Under the pieces are notes generated by a model. That model was not told the DNA's origin, did no database searches, and saw only the letters and a program-made list of their open reading frames with translations. From Naegleria gruberi (Eukaryota), in assembly GCA_000004985.1 (NCBI GenBank), contig GG738891.1: DNA of 64,000 nucleotides. The stretch is one strand, 5' to 3'. Positions 6,979 through 50,983 of the stretch are shown in pieces. The stretch's first letter is position 1; each line of letters opens with the position of its first letter. The position numbers were made by a program, and so were the translations under genes.

Positions 6979-9273
6979 TTAATAAAATGGTTCCCCTCCA
7001 TTATAAACGTCCAAATATTCGATTCCCTCGAACTGTCTAAATCTGAAGTAATGAGCACCTGCAACTGATTGAATTAGGGCAGGATCCATCTCACTTGAAA
7101 CTATTGAGGCATCAGGAATCATTTCTGATGTTACCCTTTCAACAATCTCTTTCAGTTTTGGAATGTTAAAAGTACCTCCGGAAAGGATAACATGCTTAAT
7201 CTTTGGTACTCTTCCATATGGCGAAGGAATCATTCCCTCTGTGATGGATTCTCTTAGTAACTTCTCAAAGTTTGCAAATTCGTTTTCACATAGAGTGTAA
7301 AATTCATCCCTTGTAACTGTAACAGAAGATCCATTTGAAAGTTCTACGATTGTGGAATTATTGATAGAAAGGGAACCCTTTACCTTTTCACATTGCTTAA
7401 GATCGATTGAGGAGCTGTGCTTTTCTTCCAAATGCTTCAATAAAATGAAACTGAAATCCTTTCCATTACAGCATTCCAAAAACTTTTCAAATATAAGATG
7501 ACTGTAGTAGTATTGAGAAACCTCACTGATATTGACTACTGGCTTACTACTTGACCAATTAACCACTAGACAATCACTGCCCATAATTGATTGGATGAAT
7601 GCATAAGGTATAATTTCTCTTCCATCCTCACAACATTGCAAGACTGACAATCCACAAGCTTTAGCAGATTCTACAACTAGATATTTATCCTCTGTTGGGA
7701 CTAGTAATTGTACAATTTTGGTTGAGAAGTATTTCACATTACCATCAAGATTGATCCGATCACTTGCATAGCTTGTCTCCATGTGTTGTTTGAATTCTCT
7801 GAATAATTCCTTCATTCTTTCACTGTTCGAATAAATATTTTCATCATTCGTTTGAATAACTTTTGCTGTTACTCCAACTGAATTACTAATTGAAATTGAA
7901 GCTTTCCATCGAGTTCTTCCACAATCAATTGACCAAGGAGCATGATTAAATTTACATCTGGAAATGATATTGTCTCTAATAGCTTGATCTCTTAAAGTAG
8001 TAATTGCCCATGAAATAACAGGTTGAATTCCATCCAATTCAGGATTGTAATCAACTCCCATAAATCCAGAAATGTAATGAAACTCTTTCCACTTTTGATG
8101 ATTCAACACCTCGACACTTGTTGCCGTAATTGGATTAGGGAAGCATCCAATTTCAAAAGCCTCTCTCCATCTGAAAACTTTTGCAAGTTTCTCAACTTCA
8201 GACTCTCCAGTTTCTTCAAACAAGTAGCCCTGAGAGAAATCATCAGTATATGGTTCATTTTCAGCAAATTTAGAATCCATCTCGATAAATTTCTGTAAAT
8301 GGTATGAAACTCTGTTCTCTTTATCATATGGGAAGAAGTAATTGATCCATCCAGAAATGAAATCAAAGCCACTGCTAGAATCAAAGAGAGCAATACCATT
8401 CCAAAATGTTTTCAACTCTTCAGTGAGAGTTTCTTCTTGGGCTGTTTTGATAATCCTATCAAGAATGAGTGTCAAAACCTTTCTCCACCAAGCCATATCA
8501 TATTCGTCAAGGAGTTTGAGCTTCTCTCTCATTCCCAACCAGTCATCCATAGTTCCCAAAATTGTAACACTTGGAAGACCACATAAGAAATCATTCTTAT
8601 ACGAATAAAAATCCTTAAAAGCTTCCATCAACAACATTTTCGAGGCAACTTTCTCAACTTGGGTAGAAGTTGAAAAGTTGTGATCTATAAAGTCCATCAA
8701 TTTGATTTTTCTCTCATCTCCCTTATGGGATGAAACATCATTTACAATTGCCTGATGAATTTCATTCACAACTCCCTCCCAATTAATCTCAGCACTCACT
8801 GGATCAATATATTGAGGCATAGCAACAACAATATCCATCTTGTTTTGCTTTTCTTCAGCATTGCCAATCAATTCAGGTCTCAAAGCCAAATGCTTTACCA
8901 ATCCCTGTGTAATCATCATCCAAATGTGATCAGGACTCACAATCAATGGATAATGTTCACTGTAAGCAGTACAATAACAAGCAACAACAGGATGAGGTCT
9001 CACCAATAGATTCTTCAATGCATAGACATTATCGGGTGAGTGTATGACACTGTAACGGGATCGAATTAAATCCTGATCAACTTTATCTCCCTTCTCAATG
9101 GTATTAGTAAATAATTGATTTAATAAAACTCTTTCAGAAGGCTGACTGTAGAGTTTGCCAATTTCATAGGGTTTGGCTTCTTCTTGTTCATCCTCATCAA
9201 TCGGATGCTTCTTCTTTGGAGTCCATGATGAAGCATAGAAGGGAGTAAAATCCCTCTTACAAAGAACCTTCAT
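6979..9273 (-). CDS. Fusion protein. About 440 aa of an uncharacterised domain sit upstream of an Hsp70-like actin-fold ATPase domain. There is no Hsp70 substrate-binding domain.
   Basis: The C-terminal half aligns by eye to Hsp70 NBD blocks. SIDCGRTRWKASI matches the IDLGTT phosphate-1 block. LVVESAKACGLSVLQCCED matches ATKDAGVIAGLNVLRIINE. HVILSGGTFNIPKLKE matches IVLVGGSTRIPKVQ. DPALIQSVAGAHYF matches DEAVAYGAAVQAAIL. The phosphate-2 DLGGGTFD block is degenerate. The track start at 9342 is TTG and the first ATG is at 9273. An upstream exon was not excluded. Confidence 0.5.
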   Translation of the reverse strand: MKVLCKRDFTPFYASSWTPKKKHPIDEDEQEEAKPYEIGKLYSQPSERVLLNQLFTNTIEKGDKVDQDLIRSRYSVIHSPDNVYALKNLLVRPHPVVACYCTAYSEHYPLIVSPDHIWMMITQGLVKHLALRPELIGNAEEKQNKMDIVVAMPQYIDPVSAEINWEGVVNEIHQAIVNDVSSHKGDERKIKLMDFIDHNFSTSTQVEKVASKMLLMEAFKDFYSYKNDFLCGLPSVTILGTMDDWLGMREKLKLLDEYDMAWWRKVLTLILDRIIKTAQEETLTEELKTFWNGIALFDSSSGFDFISGWINYFFPYDKENRVSYHLQKFIEMDSKFAENEPYTDDFSQGYLFEETGESEVEKLAKVFRWREAFEIGCFPNPITATSVEVLNHQKWKEFHYISGFMGVDYNPELDGIQPVISWAITTLRDQAIRDNIISRCKFNHAPWSIDCGRTRWKASISISNSVGVTAKVIQTNDENIYSNSERMKELFREFKQHMETSYASDRINLDGNVKYFSTKIVQLLVPTEDKYLVVESAKACGLSVLQCCEDGREIIPYAFIQSIMGSDCLVVNWSSSKPVVNISEVSQYYYSHLIFEKFLECCNGKDFSFILLKHLEEKHSSSIDLKQCEKVKGSLSINNSTIVELSNGSSVTVTRDEFYTLCENEFANFEKLLRESITEGMIPSPYGRVPKIKHVILSGGTFNIPKLKEIVERVTSEMIPDASIVSSEMDPALIQSVAGAHYFRFRQFEGIEYLDVYNGGEPFY

Positions 9274-9442
9274 GTTGCGCAATTTTTTTGGAATTGTTCC
9301 ATCTTGTTCCTTAACAACAATATCTTTGATATCTGCTTCCAAAATATTTGTGCTTTCCCTTGTAAGGTGTTTTGTACAGTCCGCAGAGCAAAGATTGAGA
9401 AATTACAAAGGATTTGAAAATCATAAAATATATCTTACACGT

Positions 9443-27826: not shown

Positions 27827-29613
27827 TTAAAGAACAGTGACAGTCTTGGCCAAATTTCTTGGTTTGTCTGGATCGTGACCACGGAGAAGAGCCAATTCGT
27901 AAGCAACCAATTGGAGTGGAATATTGGCCAACAAGGCACTGAAAATACCATTAGATGGAACATCAATAACATAGTCAGCTTCATGGGATGGAATCTTATC
28001 TGGAATATCAGTAATAGCTACAGTATAAGCACCTCTTGATTTGATTTCAGCAGCAGCTGTCATATTCATCTTAAAGTACTTGTCATCAAGAATGAAAACA
28101 AAAATAACAGTTCCTGGTTCAATAAGGGCGAATGGACCATGTTTCAAGGCACCAGATGAGTAACCTTCGGCGTGAGTGTAAGTAACTTCCTTAACCTTCA
28201 AAGATCCTTCATAAGCAACAGCTTCACCATAACCCTTACCCAACATGAAAAGAGTATTGCCCTTCATGTTATAAATATGTCTGGCAATATGTCTACACTT
28301 CTCTCTAACTCTGCTCAAAACCATACCTGCACTAGTTGGCAAACGATGGAGGTATTGAATAATGGCTTGACGATGTTGAAGTTGGAATTTTGGTGATCTG
28401 TTTTGAGCAAACCACAAACCAATCAATGCCAAAACAGTAACTTGGCAAGAGAATGCCTTGGTTGAGGCAACAGCAGTTTCACGACCAGCATTAATATACA
28501 CACCACACTTTGTAGTTCTAGCAATAGTTGAACCGACACGATTAACGCAGGAGAAGCTTGGAACGCTCAATTGTTCTGCAATATAAATACATCTCAAAAC
28601 ATCAGCTGTTTCACCACTTTGTGATAAAACCAAAAGGCCAGAATTTTCAGGGCAAAAATGTGATTCCTCAAGTTCAGCACCATCAATAACTTGGATAGTC
28701 TTGAAGCATCTCAAATCTCTGAAAATTTGAGCACCATAGAGACCAGCATAGTAACTAGTACCACAACCAGCAATAACCAAATGTTCAATACCAGATAACC
28801 ATTCCTTATTATCATCCAAACCACCCAATTTAACATGACTATCATCACTAATTCTACCACCAAAATTCAAAGATCTTGAAATTGATTCAGGTTGCTCCAA
28901 AATTTCACGAATAGTCCAGTGAGCATGTGGATGAGGAGTCTTTTCAATCTTTTCTTCTTCAACAACAATCTTTCTTTCATAAGGAAGAGTAACACCTTCA
29001 GAGGTAATGACAGCAATTTCATTATTTTCCAAACTGATCATTTCTCTAGTGTACAATCCGAATGCAGAACTTTCGGAAGCAACAAACATCTTACCTTGTG
29101 AAACACCGACCAAGAGAGGAGAACCATTTCTGGCTACAACCAAACGATCTGGTTCAACTGTAGACATAATAACCAAACCCCAAGTACCTTCCAAATGTTT
29201 AGTAGTCTTGAGAACGGCCTTTTCAACAACATCTTGCTTCATTCCATCCTTTAACATTTGGTCCAAATAGACACCAATCATTTGAACAATAACTTCAGTA
29301 TCTGTTTCACTCTTGAATTTAATTCCGTGCTTTTCTATCAATTCCTTTTTCAATTCACCAGAATTTTCAATGACACCATTGTGAACAAGAATCACACGAC
29401 CAGATTGATCCATGTGAGGGTGAGCATTCATATCAGTTTTAGCTCCGTGAGTAGCCCATCTAGTGTGAGCAATACCAATACTATCATTTCCGTGTGTATG
29501 TAAAGTTTCTCTCAATCTCTTAAGAGCATCACTTGTTGTTTGAGAACTGGCATATTTAGTTGTGTGGAAGCAAGGTTCTCCCTTATCGTTTTGTCTTAAG
29601 NGTTGCAATACCT
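27827..29613 (-). CDS. GFA1: Glutamine--fructose-6-phosphate aminotransferase (GFA1/GFAT). The 5' end is truncated by an assembly gap.
   Basis: Diagnostic blocks are present: GIAHTRWATHG, the SIS-domain blocks CGTSYYAG and LSQSGETADV, and the C-terminal block LAKTVTVL. The N-terminal Cys1 glutaminase region lies in the N-run. The expressed-gene codon bias is strong (ggt, gct, aag, ttc). Confidence 0.85.
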
Positions 29614-29663
29614 NNNNNNNNNNNNNNNNNNNNNNNNNNNNNNNNNNNNNNNNNNNNNNNNNN
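29614..29663. other. Assembly gap. A run of N is present, plus an isolated N at 29601.
   Basis: Ambiguous bases in the sequence. Both flanking genes lose their 5' ends here, so the true gap is larger than 50 nt. Confidence 0.95.
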
Positions 29664-30738
29664 GAAGATGTGGAAGTCACCAAATGGTACTATTAGAAAC
29701 ATTTTGGGTGGTACTGTCTTCAGAGAACCTATTGTTATTGAAAACATTCCAAGATTAGTTCCTGGATGGACTCAACCAATTGTTATTGGTCGTCACGCTC
29801 ATGGTGATCAATACAAGGCTACTGACTTGGTTATTGGCGAACCAGGAAAGATGGAACTTGTTTTCACTCCAAAGAATGGTGGTGAAACTCAAAGATACAC
29901 TGTCTTCAACTTTGAAGGTTCTGGTGTTGCTATGGGAATGTACAATACTGATGAATCTATCAGAGATTTTGCTTACTCATGCTTCCAATTGGCTGTTGAC
30001 AAGAAATGGCCATTGTACTTGTCCACCAAGAATACCATCTTGAAGGCTTATGATGGTAGATTCAAGGATATCTTCCAAGAAATCTATGAAAAGGAATTCA
30101 AGACTAAATTCACTGAATTGGGTATCTGGTACGAACACAGACTTATTGATGACATGGTTGCTCAAACTTTGAAGAGTTCTGGTGGTTTCATCTGGGCTTG
30201 TAAGAATTATGATGGTGATGTCCAATCCGATATTGTTGCTCAAGGTTATGGTTCTTTGGGTTTGATGACTTCTGTCTTGTTGTGTCCTGATGGTAAGACT
30301 GTTGAAGCTGAAGCTGCTCACGGTACTGTTACTAGACACTACAGAGAACACCAAAAGGGTAAGGAAACCTCCACCAACCCTGTTGCCTCCATCTTTGCTT
30401 GGTCTCGTGGTTTGGCTCATCGTGCTAAGCTCGATGGTAATGCTGAATTGGCCAAGTTCTGTGATGCTTTGGAAGCTGCCACTATTGAAACTATCAGAGC
30501 TGGTAAGATGACCAAGGATTTGGCTATCTGTGTTCACGGAAACAAGTAAGTTTTTTCACACACGACAGATTTTCTAATTATTATTTTATTATTAATTATT
30601 TGATATTGTGATGATATTAATATTGAAAATTTGCATGATTATTATGGATAAACAGTGTTGATCGTTCTCAATACCTCAACACCAATGATTTCATGGCTGC
30701 TATTGATGAAACTTTGAAGAGTAAGCTCGGATTGTAAG
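29664..30738 (+). CDS. IDP: NADP-dependent isocitrate dehydrogenase. The 5' end is truncated by the gap. Exons are 29664..30545 and 30655..30738.
   Basis: The protein aligns by eye along its whole length to eukaryotic NADP-IDH ([54 protein letters not shown]). The last exon ([27 protein letters not shown]) is joined across a 109-nt GTAAGT..ACAG intron. It matches the conserved IDH C-terminus. Confidence 0.85.
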
Positions 30739-38059: not shown

Positions 38060-38279
38060 ACAATTTTGATAGAGAACGATTGTAAATAAATATTACGAGT
38101 TATTTAATTCTTTTACAAACTCTGAAAATATTCCCATATTGAATGAACATGCAAATTGTGATTCATTTTATTCCACTGCCGTATTATAATATTGAAGACT
38201 ATTGTAAAAATAGCATTTACAATATACTACGTATTTCAAATACGCATTTGCTGGATTATGAAAATATTATTAAAAAAAA

Positions 38280-39458
38280 ATGTCATCACTCAATCATGAA
38301 CAACGATTTTCCCGAATTGAAAAATTATTCAAAAACTTAGCCTCTACCCACAATCCTTCCGGAGAAGAATCCAATCTCATGCTCGAGATTAAATCCTTTC
38401 TACTCGATCACCAATTGATTGACAATTCAAATAGTTGTCATGATAATTTCCTCCTCTTTGATACTCAAATTGGAATGATATTCAAATGTAGTACTTTCAA
38501 TGATGAGAATCAAAATTTCATTTCGGATGAAAATTCACCATCGATTTGTTTATTTGCTCATCTTGATAGTGATCACATTGAATTGGAACAAGAAAAATTG
38601 AAACAATTAATTTGGAGAAGAGATGAAAATCTTCTTTACTATTCAAATAATGAAGAAATTGTTGAGGTTGGACTTGATGATAAGAGTGGAATTTGTGTCA
38701 TTTTGGAAACCTTGTTGAGATTGAAAGAAATGAAGGGTATTAGAGTGAATGTTTATGTTTGTTTTTCAGTACAGGAAGAAACTGGACAGAAAGGAGTTAT
38801 GAGAATGGATCATTTGATGTTTAAATCAATGGTTGAGGATGGAGGAGTGGGTTGTGGAATTGCTGTTGATAGAATGACATATTATCATCCAGAAAATAAG
38901 AGACATTTAGTGGACGAATATTGCCGAATTCCATTGATACCCAACGATCAAAAAGACTCTTTCATGAATCAATTTAATAAGAGCAGTCAATTGGTGGAGG
39001 GATGCGACATTGATTTCATCCCAAGTGAAAATTGCAGTGATCTATTGGAATATAAAATCAAATTGGATTGTGAAATTATTGCACCAGAAATGTTAGAATC
39101 CTTAAACGCTCACGATGTTAAATTATTCGAAAAACTTTCAACTCTCTTAGAGAAATATGAAAATATCACGAGTGAAATTAAGAAAATTATGAATAACATT
39201 TCAGCAACGAGTAGAGTGAGTGGATTTAAAAGTCATCCAAGATTTACCAGATATCAACTGGCACATCAAATTAATTCATTGATTTACTCTGACAAGGTAT
39301 TGAAATTTTACAATGAAACATCATTGAAAAAGTATTTAAATGTTTCTTTTGTAAATTTGAGTTTGGATTATGATGACAGTTGTGGATTTGTTTCTTTGAA
39401 AGAATTGGATAATACAGCTGAAATTTTATTTGATTTTATTAGAAATTATCACCTTTAA
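38280..39458 (+). CDS. M42-family (FrvX/CelM/glutamyl-aminopeptidase-like) metallopeptidase homolog. Intronless. 392 aa.
   Basis: The motifs resemble M42/M20 peptidase blocks. LFAHLDS matches AHMDEIG. GLDDKSG matches ALDDRAG. FSVQEETGQKG matches FTVQEEVGLRGA. ATG is at 38280 after an A9 run. The identity rests on short motifs only. Confidence 0.4.
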   Translation: MSSLNHEQRFSRIEKLFKNLASTHNPSGEESNLMLEIKSFLLDHQLIDNSNSCHDNFLLFDTQIGMIFKCSTFNDENQNFISDENSPSICLFAHLDSDHIELEQEKLKQLIWRRDENLLYYSNNEEIVEVGLDDKSGICVILETLLRLKEMKGIRVNVYVCFSVQEETGQKGVMRMDHLMFKSMVEDGGVGCGIAVDRMTYYHPENKRHLVDEYCRIPLIPNDQKDSFMNQFNKSSQLVEGCDIDFIPSENCSDLLEYKIKLDCEIIAPEMLESLNAHDVKLFEKLSTLLEKYENITSEIKKIMNNISATSRVSGFKSHPRFTRYQLAHQINSLIYSDKVLKFYNETSLKKYLNVSFVNLSLDYDDSCGFVSLKELDNTAEILFDFIRNYHL

Positions 39459-46712: not shown

Positions 46713-47188
46713 ATGACAAATTCAACAACTCCAAAACAACCCTACAGAAGAGGAAGAAATTTTTTCACTAGAGCACTGTTTCATCCGAATACTTATTATC
46801 TGGTGCAATATGGTGGTTTGCTCACAATTTCTTATTTGATTTTAATTAAAACAAATTGGAAAGAAGGAACAATATTTTATGATGTGAGTTTTTGAAGAAT
46901 GAATTAGTGTACAATAATAATATCGGAAATTGGATTTTAATATTCATCATCATCTATTATAATTTATTTAATTGAATGAAAATATTTTGATTGAATTTTT
47001 ATCGGATTTAATTTTGATTGAATGATGTATTTAAATATTTGGAAATATTAATAATATTAATAACAATATTGGAAAAAATATAGTTTAAACAATATTTACA
47101 AGAAAAGAGAAGAAATTTACTTTCAATGAGTGAGGAAGAAATTCAAAAACAAAAGGAACTTCTCAAATTATCCAAAGAATCTAAATAG
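46713..47188 (+). CDS. Small single-pass membrane protein, about 92 aa, with two exons. Exons are 46713..46883 and 47084..47188. Function unknown.
   Basis: Exon 1 ends at a GTGAGT donor. A 200-nt AT-rich intron ends in ATATAG and continues in frame into FKQYLQEKRRNLLSMSEEEIQKQKELLKLSKESK, then stop. One TM segment is present (LLTISYLILI). Confidence 0.3.
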
Positions 47189-47216: not shown

Positions 47217-48633
47217 TTATTTTACATAAACTCTCTTCAATCTAGGTAATAAAGCAGTTACAACTTCATAGTTAATAGTATTGGACCAGTGTGACACCAT
47301 TTCACATGTCACTTCCTTACCATCTTGTTCACCAATTAAGACTACTTCATCATTGATTTTAACTCTATCTACAACAGTTGGAGAAATTTTAACTACAAAT
47401 TGATCCATGCAAATTCTACCAACTATTGGACACTCTTCACCTCTAATTAATACGTGGGCCTTACCAGTATTAATTCTCTTGTATCCATCTCCATAACCAA
47501 CTGGGACTAATGCAAGGGTTTCGTCATCCTCTGCAACTGTATAGGTATTTCCGTATGAAACTGGTGATCCCTTTGGGAATTTTTGAACTCTTCCAAGGTG
47601 CGAAACAACAGTGAGAGCAGGTTTCAATTTGAATGGAAGTCTTGGATCATCTCTATCATTACTTGGTGAAAGTCCATAAATTGAAATACCTGGTCTAATC
47701 ATATCCATGTGCATTTCTGGGAAGAATAGAGTTCCAGCACTATTGCAACAATGGTAAGTGAGTGGCTTTTCAAAAACTCTTGAAACTTGATGATTTTCAA
47801 TCATTTTCTTCACCTCCATGAATTTATAAAATTGCTCTCTCGTATAGTCTGGGCTCATCTCATCAGCACTTGAAAAGTGTGTAAATACTCCTGTAATTTT
47901 GATTCTATTGTACAATTTCATTGGATTAATAGTGAACCATCTCAAGAAATTTTCCAATTTTTCAGGATGAGCTCCAAATCTTCCCATTCCAGTATCAACC
48001 TTCAAATGTACATTAATGGTTTTATCTTGTTTTTCACATTCTCTAAACAGAGTTTCAACAATTAATCTACTGCCTGAAATAGTTGGAGTTAAATTGTAAG
48101 TGACACATTCCTTCACCTCCTCTGGAATGGCATAACCCAACACTAGAATTTCAATATTTGCATTTTCCTTACTCAAATTACTACGAATTTTAACACCTTC
48201 CTTCACTCTATTTACTGCAAATTGTTTAATTGACAATTCATTGTAAAGTTCCCTGACAACTGGTGTATCTCCGTGTCCTATAATATCATGAAATCATGAA
48301 ATTGGATTCGTCGTATGAGTGAAATTGTCATCACATCCGAAATTAATTTTTTCATCATTAACAAATATACATCATGAGAATATTTTCAACATCATGATTA
48401 AATATATTCCGATCCATAATTTACCTACCATAGGCATTGGCTTTAACCACTGGCATTACGTGAATATCCTGATTGTAGTTTTTAGCAAAATTTACAGTAT
48501 TTTCCACATTTTCAGTGATATTCCTCAAATTCACAATCGCACACGAAGTTGATTGTAGTTTTCGTGGCACATTGGACAAGGTTGTTCCCAAATGTTTTAA
48601 CAAGTTGGATGTTGTTGTTCCTTGTTTCATCAT
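47217..48633 (-). CDS. alr: Alanine racemase (bacterial-type PLP enzyme) with two exons. Exons are 48633..48429 and 48277..47217.
   Basis: The PLP-lysine motif VVKANAYG|HGD is split by a 151-nt GTAGGT..TATAG intron and restored in frame. HLKVDTGMGRFG, VPVGYGDGY and GRICMDQ are canonical Alr blocks. The protein is about 427 aa. Confidence 0.8.
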
Positions 48634-49282: not shown

Positions 49283-50983
49283 ATGTTGTCATCATCATCG
49301 GGTGCTGATAATAACAACAAAAGCAGTAATAATAATAATAATAATAGAATGGATAATAGTACTAATAGCAATTGTAGCAACAACAACAACAGTAGCAACA
49401 GTAGCAATAATGTTGGTTTGGGAGGTTCTGGTAGTGCTCTGAAGGGATCGGAGGAGAAGAAGAAACAACAGGCTCCTATTAAAATTCTCAAGAAGAATGA
49501 TTTTAGACAGGATAATGATGAAGAGTTTTCAATGAGTCCAAAGTTAGTTACGAGAGGAGTTTTATCAGTTAAAATTCCACCTGCTAATGTTAATAGTAAT
49601 AATGGATCTCCCCTCCCTTCATATAAGAAGAGTTCAGCCTCGCCTTCAGCATCTTCACCACCAGCATCAGAATTATCTAAAGCTTTAGTATCATCGGAAG
49701 ATCATGATGGTCAAAGTCCATCACCAACAACATCTTCTTCTTATGAGGAGCAAGGAATTGCTGAAAATCATTTTATATTTCTTCCGAATCATAATGAATT
49801 GTTTAATCACTTTGCATTAGATATTGGTGGATCACTTGTCAAGATGGTTTACATGTTACCTTTTAGTGATAATGAATTTATTTATCAAACTCAAGATTCT
49901 GAAAGTAATGAACTTGAAGCTTATTATCATCAAGCTGTTAGTAGTGATGATGAAGAGGTTGATGGACAATTATCCATAAAATCACTTCCTCCACAATCAC
50001 CATTAATCATTTCAAAGGATGTTGATCATTTTTATGAATCTGAAAATGGTGTTAAAAAGAGAGGTTCTAAACTTTGTTTTGCTAGATTCCAAACACAAGA
50101 TATTGAACAATGTTTGAGTTTAATTGAAAAGTTACTGAAATTAGATGAATCAATAACTGGTTCATCAGAAGCTCCTTGTATTAAACATATTAATGCTACT
50201 GGTGGAGGTGCATTCAAGTTTTCAGCACTATTGAAAAATAGATTTGGTTTTGAAGTTAACAAGCTAGATGAAATGGAATCATTGATTAAGGGGTTAAACT
50301 TTTTATTGTTAAATATTCCAAATGAATCATTTACATTCACAAAGGAAAAGAAGAGAGAATACCTTTCTTTCCATGACAAGTTACATACAGATATTTTCCC
50401 ATATTTAATTGTAAATATTGGAAGTGGTGTGAGTATTGTTAGAGTTGATGATGTTGGTAAATTTGAAAGAGTTTCGGGAAGCAGTATTGGTGGAGGTACC
50501 TTCTGGGGTTTATCAAAATTATTAACAGGTTGTAATTCATTTGAGGAATTGTTGAAATTAACCAAGACTGGTGACAACAAAAAGGTTGACATGTTAGTTG
50601 GTGATATTTACGGAAGAGATTATGAAAAAATTGGTTTGAATTCTGATATTATTGCTAGTAGTTTCGGTAAAATGATTCAGTACAAAGCTGGAGAAGGTGA
50701 AGAACCAAAAGATGCCGATCTTGCTAAATCTTTATTATTTATGATTTGTAACAATATTGGTCAAATTGCCTATCTTAATGCTCTCAGATTTGGCCTTAAA
50801 AGAATATTTTTTGCTGGTTACTTTATCAGAAATCACGATGTCACAATGCACTACATTTCCTATGCCATCAACTTTTGGTCTAGGGGTGAAATTTCTGCCA
50901 CTTTTTTGAGACATGAAGGTTATTTGGGAGCAATTGGTTCCTTCCTTTCATCTCCTCAAAAAGATTCAGAAAATTCTGAATAA
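49283..50983 (+). CDS. Pantothenate kinase, type II eukaryotic PanK, with a long Asn/Ser-rich N-terminal extension.
   Basis: FALDIGGSLVKMVY, NATGGGAFKF and IVNIGSGVSIVRV are present. This is the actin-fold eukaryotic PanK (fumble) family. ATG is at 49283 after an A-run. It is a single exon. Confidence 0.8.
   Translation: MLSSSSGADNNNKSSNNNNNNRMDNSTNSNCSNNNNSSNSSNNVGLGGSGSALKGSEEKKKQQAPIKILKKNDFRQDNDEEFSMSPKLVTRGVLSVKIPPANVNSNNGSPLPSYKKSSASPSASSPPASELSKALVSSEDHDGQSPSPTTSSSYEEQGIAENHFIFLPNHNELFNHFALDIGGSLVKMVYMLPFSDNEFIYQTQDSESNELEAYYHQAVSSDDEEVDGQLSIKSLPPQSPLIISKDVDHFYESENGVKKRGSKLCFARFQTQDIEQCLSLIEKLLKLDESITGSSEAPCIKHINATGGGAFKFSALLKNRFGFEVNKLDEMESLIKGLNFLLLNIPNESFTFTKEKKREYLSFHDKLHTDIFPYLIVNIGSGVSIVRVDDVGKFERVSGSSIGGGTFWGLSKLLTGCNSFEELLKLTKTGDNKKVDMLVGDIYGRDYEKIGLNSDIIASSFGKMIQYKAGEGEEPKDADLAKSLLFMICNNIGQIAYLNALRFGLKRIFFAGYFIRNHDVTMHYISYAINFWSRGEISATFLRHEGYLGAIGSFLSSPQKDSENSE
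49327..49346 (+). repeat. (AAT)n coding microsatellite, giving poly-Asn in the PanK N-terminus.
   Basis: Direct tandem triplet. Similar AAT/AAC/CAA tracts occur in many genes (for example 13370-13430 and 4030-4070). Confidence 0.85.

Follow-up and report, generated by a model that had tools for sequence, protein, structure and literature searches.

A single-intron alanine racemase gene in the nuclear genome of Naegleria gruberi and its probable bacterial origin

The alanine racemase locus

The stretch of DNA analysed here, referred to below as the window, is 64 kb (64,000 nucleotides) in length, and on its minus strand positions 47217–48633 are occupied by a two-exon gene for an alanine racemase (Alr), with a small conserved gene on one side and a pantothenate kinase gene on the other. 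The features of the locus are as follows.

46713–47188, plus strand: small conserved gene (exon 46713–46883, intron 46884–47083, exon 47084–47188)
48277–47217, minus strand: Alr exon 2, from the rest of the Gly69 codon to Lys421, with the TAA stop at 47219–47217; it encodes R168, H202, R263, Y310 (codon 47555–47553), M359/D360 and Y405
48428–48278, minus strand: Alr intron, 151 nt, GT-AG (GTAGGT...TATAG), phase 1, 26% GC
48633–48429, minus strand: Alr exon 1, 205 nt, codons 1–68 and the first base of Gly69; it encodes an N-terminal extension of ~30 aa and the PLP lysine K64 (codon 48444–48442)
48640–48634, minus strand: run of seven A directly 5' of the ATG at 48633
49283–50983, plus strand: pantothenate kinase gene (PanK; Fumble, 439 bits), the divergent upstream neighbour of Alr

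The spliced product is 421 aa long and matches, with 100% identity from end to end, the N. gruberi protein annotated as XP_002673400.1 / EFC40656.1 / D2VRE6_NAEGR in strain NEG-M and described as a "tentative alanine racemase". This match identifies the window as nuclear DNA of N. gruberi, with the gene inside a 339-kb scaffold; the existing annotation of the gene already equals our reconstructed two-exon model. An earlier note on this DNA had placed the gene at the same coordinates, with a 151-nt GT-AG intron running through the PLP-lysine motif, and had listed the motifs VVKANAYGHGD, VDTGMGRFG, YGDGY and GRICMDQ. Coordinates, intron and all four motifs are borne out by the translation, and the one correction concerns the spliced product, for which that note gave 427 aa.

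The intron is in phase 1 and splits the codon of Gly69 in VVK(64)ANAYG|HGD, within the PLP-attachment motif and five codons 3' of the PLP lysine codon. It is poorer in GC (26%) than the exons (35–36%). If unspliced, the frame reads TAT GGT AGG TAA, with a stop two codons on, and removal of the intron is therefore needed to keep the Alr frame open. When the exons are joined, the junction is gap-free against all orthologues and bacterial Alr in a 12-sequence alignment, and it is probable that 48428–48278 is spliced out in the cell.

Enzyme family, active site and predicted fold

The product contains both domains of the family in complete form, the N-terminal alpha/beta-barrel (Pfam PF01168 Ala_racemase_N, E=3.7e-53, residues 34–273, profile positions 1–220 of 220) and the C-terminal beta-strand domain (PF00842 Ala_racemase_C, E=1.6e-40, residues 290–419, profile positions 2–127 of 127). 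It scores 324.7 bits with the NCBIfam 'alr' equivalog model TIGR00492, whose cutoff is 168, and its nearest solved structures are bacterial Alr enzymes such as that of C. difficile (4LUY, E=3.7e-61). The assignment to the alanine racemase family is far beyond chance.

For the active site we used as reference the Geobacillus stearothermophilus Alr sequence, verified as identical to that in PDB 1L6F. Geobacillus K39, Y43, K129, R136 and H166 correspond to N. gruberi K64, Y68, K161, R168 and H202; N203/S204, R219 and Y265 to N247/S248, R263 and Y310; and Y284, M312/D313 and Y354 to Y330, M359/D360 and Y405, and all of these are conserved. The catalytic lysine K64, in VVKANAYGHG, is aligned with K39 of 1L6F, while Y310, R263, R168 and H202 are the counterparts of the second base Tyr265' and of the Arg219/Arg136/His166 network, and are invariant in the 12-sequence alignment. 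An AlphaFold monomer model (pLDDT 84.4, pTM 0.84) leaves residues 1–27 unstructured, and the best Foldseek matches of this model are all Alr crystal structures, with TM scores of 0.84–0.90 (normalised to the target). The family searches, structure matches, active-site alignment and fold search thus agree with the view of the earlier note that this is an Alr of bacterial type.

Because the active site is fully conserved, we infer with good confidence a two-base PLP mechanism. Lys64 would bind PLP as a Schiff base and would also serve as one catalytic base, Tyr310 from the partner subunit would be the second, and the pair would interconvert L-alanine and D-alanine. Enzymes of this family form head-to-tail homodimers whose active sites are composite. 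Our literature search found no activity data for N. gruberi Alr.

Proteins of this fold do not all act on alanine, and the enzyme might instead work mainly on another amino acid, such as serine in the manner of VanT, or on many substrates in the manner of Bsr and Alr-like racemases. Among the NCBIfam models the second-best match, at 291.9 bits, is to the catalytic domain of the VanT-G serine racemase, and VanTg ranks high in the fold search of the model. However, the VanT-G score falls short of that model's cutoff of 460, whereas the alr equivalog is at almost twice its own, and lysine and broad-spectrum racemases are much weaker matches (E 1e-29 to 1e-34). Moreover Tyr354, which is substituted in VanT-type serine racemases, is kept as Y405. 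Because of these model scores and the retained Tyr405, a main substrate other than alanine appears decidedly unlikely.

Two particular subfamilies were considered and rejected. A VanT-type serine racemase is not indicated by NF033131 and NF033132 (291.9 against 460 and 167.1 against 900 bits), and the N-terminal membrane domain is absent; the model of the catabolic DadX subfamily (NF002970) has a cutoff of 600 bits, of which N. gruberi Alr reaches 154.8. If the enzyme does have a catabolic role, this does not derive from the proteobacterial DadX lineage. Among the NCBIfam models for VanT, DadX, bifunctional MurF-Alr and ornithine racemase, N. gruberi Alr is below every cutoff.

Residence in the host genome and conserved gene order

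Introns, host composition, eukaryotic neighbours and synteny in relatives all mark Alr as a gene resident in a eukaryotic genome. Its GC3 of 0.27 falls within the 0.22–0.35 spanned by the window's other long ORFs, in keeping with the host codon usage claimed for it earlier. The run of seven A before the ATG, which the earlier note took as a host feature, has its like at other likely starts in the window, among which an A-rich context is common and is seen at, for example, 38280, 41558, 49283 and 61077. The ORFs around Alr encode RhoGAP/WW, GATA/F-box, SF-assemblin, RGS, ankyrin, IBR, HEATR5, CFA20 and TFIID domains.

The small convergent neighbour encodes 91 aa with one hydrophobic stretch and has no Pfam match. 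Its stop is 28 nt from the Alr stop, and the 3' UTRs of the two genes therefore overlap or are extremely short. N. fowleri, N. lovaniensis and Willaertia all retain this tail-to-tail arrangement, and in the first two of these the called genes are 2 nt apart; the 91-aa gene belongs to the syntenic block and has no part in the enzyme. On the other side, PanK and Alr have a common 650-bp intergenic region, and PanK is a synteny anchor in three Naegleria genomes. The order PRK (uridine-kinase-like) – 91-aa gene – Alr – PanK – HEATR5 is found in the window, in N. fowleri and in N. lovaniensis, and Willaertia magna keeps the partial order PRK – small gene – Alr. The Alr orthologues are 64% (N. lovaniensis), 63% (N. 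fowleri) and 47% (W. magna) identical to that of N. gruberi.

These observations bear on the suspicion that a bacterial contaminant or an assembly artefact had entered the N. gruberi genome, a suspicion that might be raised by the typically bacterial protein family and by a gene model known here from sequence alone. Alr sits, however, between eukaryotic genes inside the 339-kb contig, has host composition, cannot be read unless a spliceosomal intron is removed, and occupies the equal syntenic position in three independently sequenced relatives. Because of the synteny and the intron, contamination is excluded, as the earlier note had maintained; the eukaryotic flanking genes and the gene order conserved in three other heterolobosean genomes place the gene firmly in its host.

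Three other parts of the window deserve mention. An ORF at 38274–39455 (plus strand) weakly resembles Peptidase_M42 (31 bits), a mainly prokaryotic family, and may be another gene of bacterial origin. At 27830–30546 two ORFs overlap, a GlmS-like one (glutamine amidotransferase and SIS) on the minus strand and one for isocitrate/isopropylmalate dehydrogenase on the plus strand; the overlap lies around an assembly gap, seen as a stretch of N near 29660, so the gene models there are unreliable. A large ORF at 6982–9402 (minus strand) has a strong DUF4419 match (230 bits).

Bacterial relatives and the origin of the gene

In sequence searches the four heterolobosean proteins come first, followed by the metagenome sequences P0005 and P0006 and then by about 110 Alr sequences at 40–47% identity. 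Beyond P0005 and P0006 the named matches, which are a minority, are without exception bacterial Alr, mostly from Chloroflexota/Anaerolineae, and an exhaustive search of representative sequences adds one more close relative, P0121. Among the best 120 matches of the sequence search and of a clade-profile search there is no other named eukaryote. When one genome per species is scanned across bacteria and archaea, the best named relatives are Anaerolineae MAGs (40–43%), then Acidobacteria and many Clostridia. A profile built from the seven eukaryote-like Alr sequences gives its members 600–757 bits, compared with 464 bits for the next best match.

Trees of 187 sequences and 366 columns were built by neighbour-joining (NJ), a distance method, with the heterolobosean and environmental sequences as their only eukaryotic or eukaryote-like members. 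Naegleria and Willaertia Alr group together in 100% of NJ bootstraps, and a seven-member clade of the three Naegleria, the Willaertia and three environmental sequences is recovered in 92–98%. Naegleria proteins are 44–52% identical to the environmental members of the clade, which is no higher than the 46–47% seen with the best bacteria, and for this reason it is the tree, together with shared insertions, that carries the monophyly of the clade. When distances are gamma-corrected, NJ on the full data sets the clade beside a 41-sequence group dominated by Chloroflexota, an arrangement with which 25–42% of bootstraps agree; in the remaining replicates it is attached to long-branch bacterial sequences. 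Kimura-distance NJ gave P0262/P0238 as sister, which we rejected as long-branch attraction, with 8% support and with P0262 located in a bacterial (Firmicutes-like) operon. The Anaerolineae (Chloroflexota) are the most similar bacteria and, as donor, the leading if uncertain candidate.

The distribution of the gene is narrow and, in these distance trees with the other eukaryotic Alr outside them, Alr is nested among bacterial homologues. These patterns support an origin of heterolobosean Alr by horizontal transfer from bacteria, as the earlier note had suggested, the Naegleria/Willaertia/environmental clade being small and set among bacterial sequences. They likewise support a transfer that predates the split between Naegleria and Willaertia, both of the Vahlkampfiidae (Heterolobosea), and that took place in a common ancestor of the two or further back. 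We find no broad, vertically inherited eukaryotic Alr clade; the gene is common to close relatives only, and because it is shared with them the transfer is older than the species. We propose the following: a bacterial alr would have been acquired and would then have taken on host base composition, an A-rich start context, a basic N-terminal extension and lineage-specific spliceosomal introns. The picture of an old, domesticated gene drawn in the earlier note is in line with the proposed age of the transfer and with the intron and host composition. Taking the evidence together, we put at roughly 0.85 the probability that the locus is a nuclear gene with one intron, that it encodes a PLP-dependent alanine racemase of fold type III, and that it derives from a bacterial alr by horizontal transfer.

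Alternatively, Alr could be ancestral in eukaryotes or in Discoba, or stem from the mitochondrial endosymbiont, with loss almost everywhere and no later transfer. Alr-family genes are reported in several kinetoplastids, which belong to the sister phylum of Heterolobosea, and three environmental eukaryote-like sequences join the heterolobosean clade. Yet the best 120 matches contain no kinetoplastid or other named eukaryote and more than 100 bacterial sequences, the bacteria closest in sequence belong to the Chloroflexota rather than to the Alphaproteobacteria, and shared ancient intron positions are absent. In a published tree-based survey, moreover, the Naegleria and trypanosomatid genes are separate transfers (PMC5169069). 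Ancestral descent is accordingly a highly improbable alternative to horizontal transfer.

That survey, of D-amino-acid enzymes in eukaryotes (Naranjo-Ortiz et al. 2016; PMC5169069), lists D2VRE6_NAEGR in its Suppl. Table 2 as a transfer from Bacteria to Naegleria under Ala_racemase_N, and treats the event as separate from those of S. pombe ALR1/2, trypanosomatids, oomycetes, diatoms and others. The earlier note's proposal of a transfer therefore stands, but not as a novelty. Alr-family genes are also less rare among eukaryotes than that note suggested when it named fission yeast and some fungi, as 14 transfer events are counted for Ala_racemase_N (PMC5169069).

The three environmental sequences come from contigs that look eukaryotic, and P0005, P0006 and P0121 have basic N-termini and insertions in common with the Naegleria proteins. 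The contigs concerned (L004, L005, L006 and L089) represent three clusters of intronless eukaryote-like Alr with a GC content of 38–51% that group with the heterolobosean clade, and their sources are possibly unsequenced Heterolobosea. On L005 a lysine-rich eukaryote-like fragment neighbours Alr, and on L089 the gene after Alr codes for a PH_36-domain protein of 1218 aa that has just two homologues among 5.8 billion proteins. The N. fowleri assembly contains a second, partial Alr copy of 258 aa (P0291; FDP41_006969, on a 60-kb contig), which clusters with the full gene at 90% identity and may represent a haplotig, a duplicate or a fragment left by the assembly.

Introns in different lineages

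The orthologues of N. fowleri and N. lovaniensis could not be fitted by a model with a single intron; they have two, at other positions. These two are common to both species, one in phase 0 between HLDM and VRPG and the other in phase 2 in VVG|RVCMDQ, and both must be spliced to hold the frame. The N. gruberi intron site is empty in N. fowleri, N. lovaniensis and Willaertia, N. gruberi lacks the two introns of its congeners, and Willaertia Alr is intronless. Because the ancestral gene was bacterial, the positions differ between lineages and Willaertia has none, all three intron positions were probably gained after the transfer; most parsimoniously the N. gruberi lineage gained one and the lineage of N. 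fowleri and N. lovaniensis gained two. In turn, such a pattern is what a gene without introns at the outset would be expected to show. A search of the window for further copies of the Alr intron, as would be expected of an introner-like element, found none.

The N-terminal extension

Heterolobosean Alr proteins extend ~25–110 residues past the bacterial start. Residues 1–32 of the N. gruberi protein include four R/K, one H, no D/E and ten S/T, with a short helix predicted at 8–20. Such a basic, acid-free extension is compatible with a mitochondrial presequence or organelle-targeting peptide and may be one. The C-terminus has no PTS1-like tripeptide. In N. fowleri (L001 6001–7677) and N. lovaniensis (L002 6001–7603) the extensions are much longer and rich in His, Arg and Ser, at ~100–120 aa depending on the putative start codon.

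Possible role of the enzyme

In a bacterivorous amoeba Alr would most plausibly be run from D to L: digestion of the peptidoglycan and teichoic acids of prey would release D-alanine, which would be converted to L-alanine and enter central metabolism. A catabolic or salvage racemase for prey-derived D-alanine is the best-supported reading of its role, suggested by lifestyle and by analogy. The analogy is with bacterivorous Euglenozoa, for which Butenko et al. (2020; PMC7052976) proposed that Alr disposes of D-alanine from prey cell walls, and the murein-degrading MurNAc-6-phosphate etherase is present in N. gruberi as well (PMC7052976). Among the long ORFs of the window there is no DAO, Ddl or peptidoglycan-related gene, and in the literature on Naegleria in connection with racemase, D-alanine or D-amino-acid oxidase we found no functional study.

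The alanine racemase reaction is freely reversible, and the enzyme could also be thought to work in the anabolic direction, turning L-alanine into D-alanine that the amoeba itself needs, for example in its cyst wall, in something it secretes, or as the osmolyte that D-alanine is in some marine invertebrates. That free-living and pathogenic species, N. fowleri included, have retained the gene with its active site intact would fit this idea. On the other hand, the window holds no D-alanine-using enzyme (Ddl, DltA-like or NRPS), the literature searched contains no report of D-alanine-containing structures in Naegleria, and bacterivory gives abundant D-alanine, making catabolism the simpler reading. 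We regard an anabolic role as unlikely. More speculative still, and quite improbable in our estimation, is that Alr additionally supplies D-alanine for an endogenous product (cyst-wall, surface or secreted), possibly in an organelle, a location hinted at by the basic N-terminal extension; we are just as reserved about the separate notion that the three introns represent independent, datable gains within Naegleria. Catabolism of D-alanine from prey is the role that we favour.

What is new, and what it may mean

The gene is annotated and its transfer is already published, and neither is new. What is added here is that the transfer appears to predate the Naegleria–Willaertia split and that intron positions differ between lineages, with the conserved synteny of the locus as a further incremental result. 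The gene as such matters little and these additions are of modest value. Naegleria Alr is an independent case beside those of fission yeast, kinetoplastids, oomycetes and others, and since no introns would have come with the gene, the three that now lie at discordant positions would be clear-cut cases of gain following a transfer. Alr is conserved in the brain-eating N. fowleri, where its dispensability could merit a simple test; this is worthwhile because the gene is kept in that species, the enzyme is to our knowledge absent from humans, and alanine racemase is the classical target of D-cycloserine.

Comparison with known systems

The bacterial enzymes (TIGR00492; G. stearothermophilus 1SFT/1L6F, C. 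difficile 4LUS) have the two-domain architecture and the catalytic and PLP-binding residues in common with N. gruberi Alr, which is 34% identical to the Geobacillus enzyme and 40–47% identical to Alr of the Anaerolineae type. Unlike them, the N. gruberi gene is nuclear, with an intron and a ~30-aa basic N-terminal extension, its protein has a short clade-specific insertion preceding the FTHFS motif, and the organism has no cell wall needing D-alanine as a product. The VanT catalytic domain (NF033131; 4ECL) has the same fold and scores in a comparable range (291.9 bits; E=8.3e-56 to 4ECL), but N. gruberi Alr differs from VanT in having no membrane domain, in scoring under the family cutoff of 460 and in retaining the alanine-type Tyr (Y405).

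Uo and colleagues reportedly showed in 2001 that S. pombe uses its Alr for D-alanine catabolism. In S. pombe Alr1/Alr2, as in Naegleria, a bacterial alr has become fixed in a eukaryotic nuclear genome (PMC5169069), although the S. pombe gene derives from an independent transfer (PMC5169069) and lies outside the 120 closest relatives of N. gruberi Alr. The Alr of Euglenozoa (Bodo saltans, Neobodo designis and some trypanosomatids; PMC7052976) has the same proposed role in D-alanine disposal as we suggest for N. gruberi, and Euglenozoa have it alongside the MurNAc-6-phosphate etherase that is also found in N. gruberi (PMC7052976). Trypanosomatid Alr is scored as an event apart from that in Naegleria (PMC5169069); the likeness drawn here is one of proposed role.
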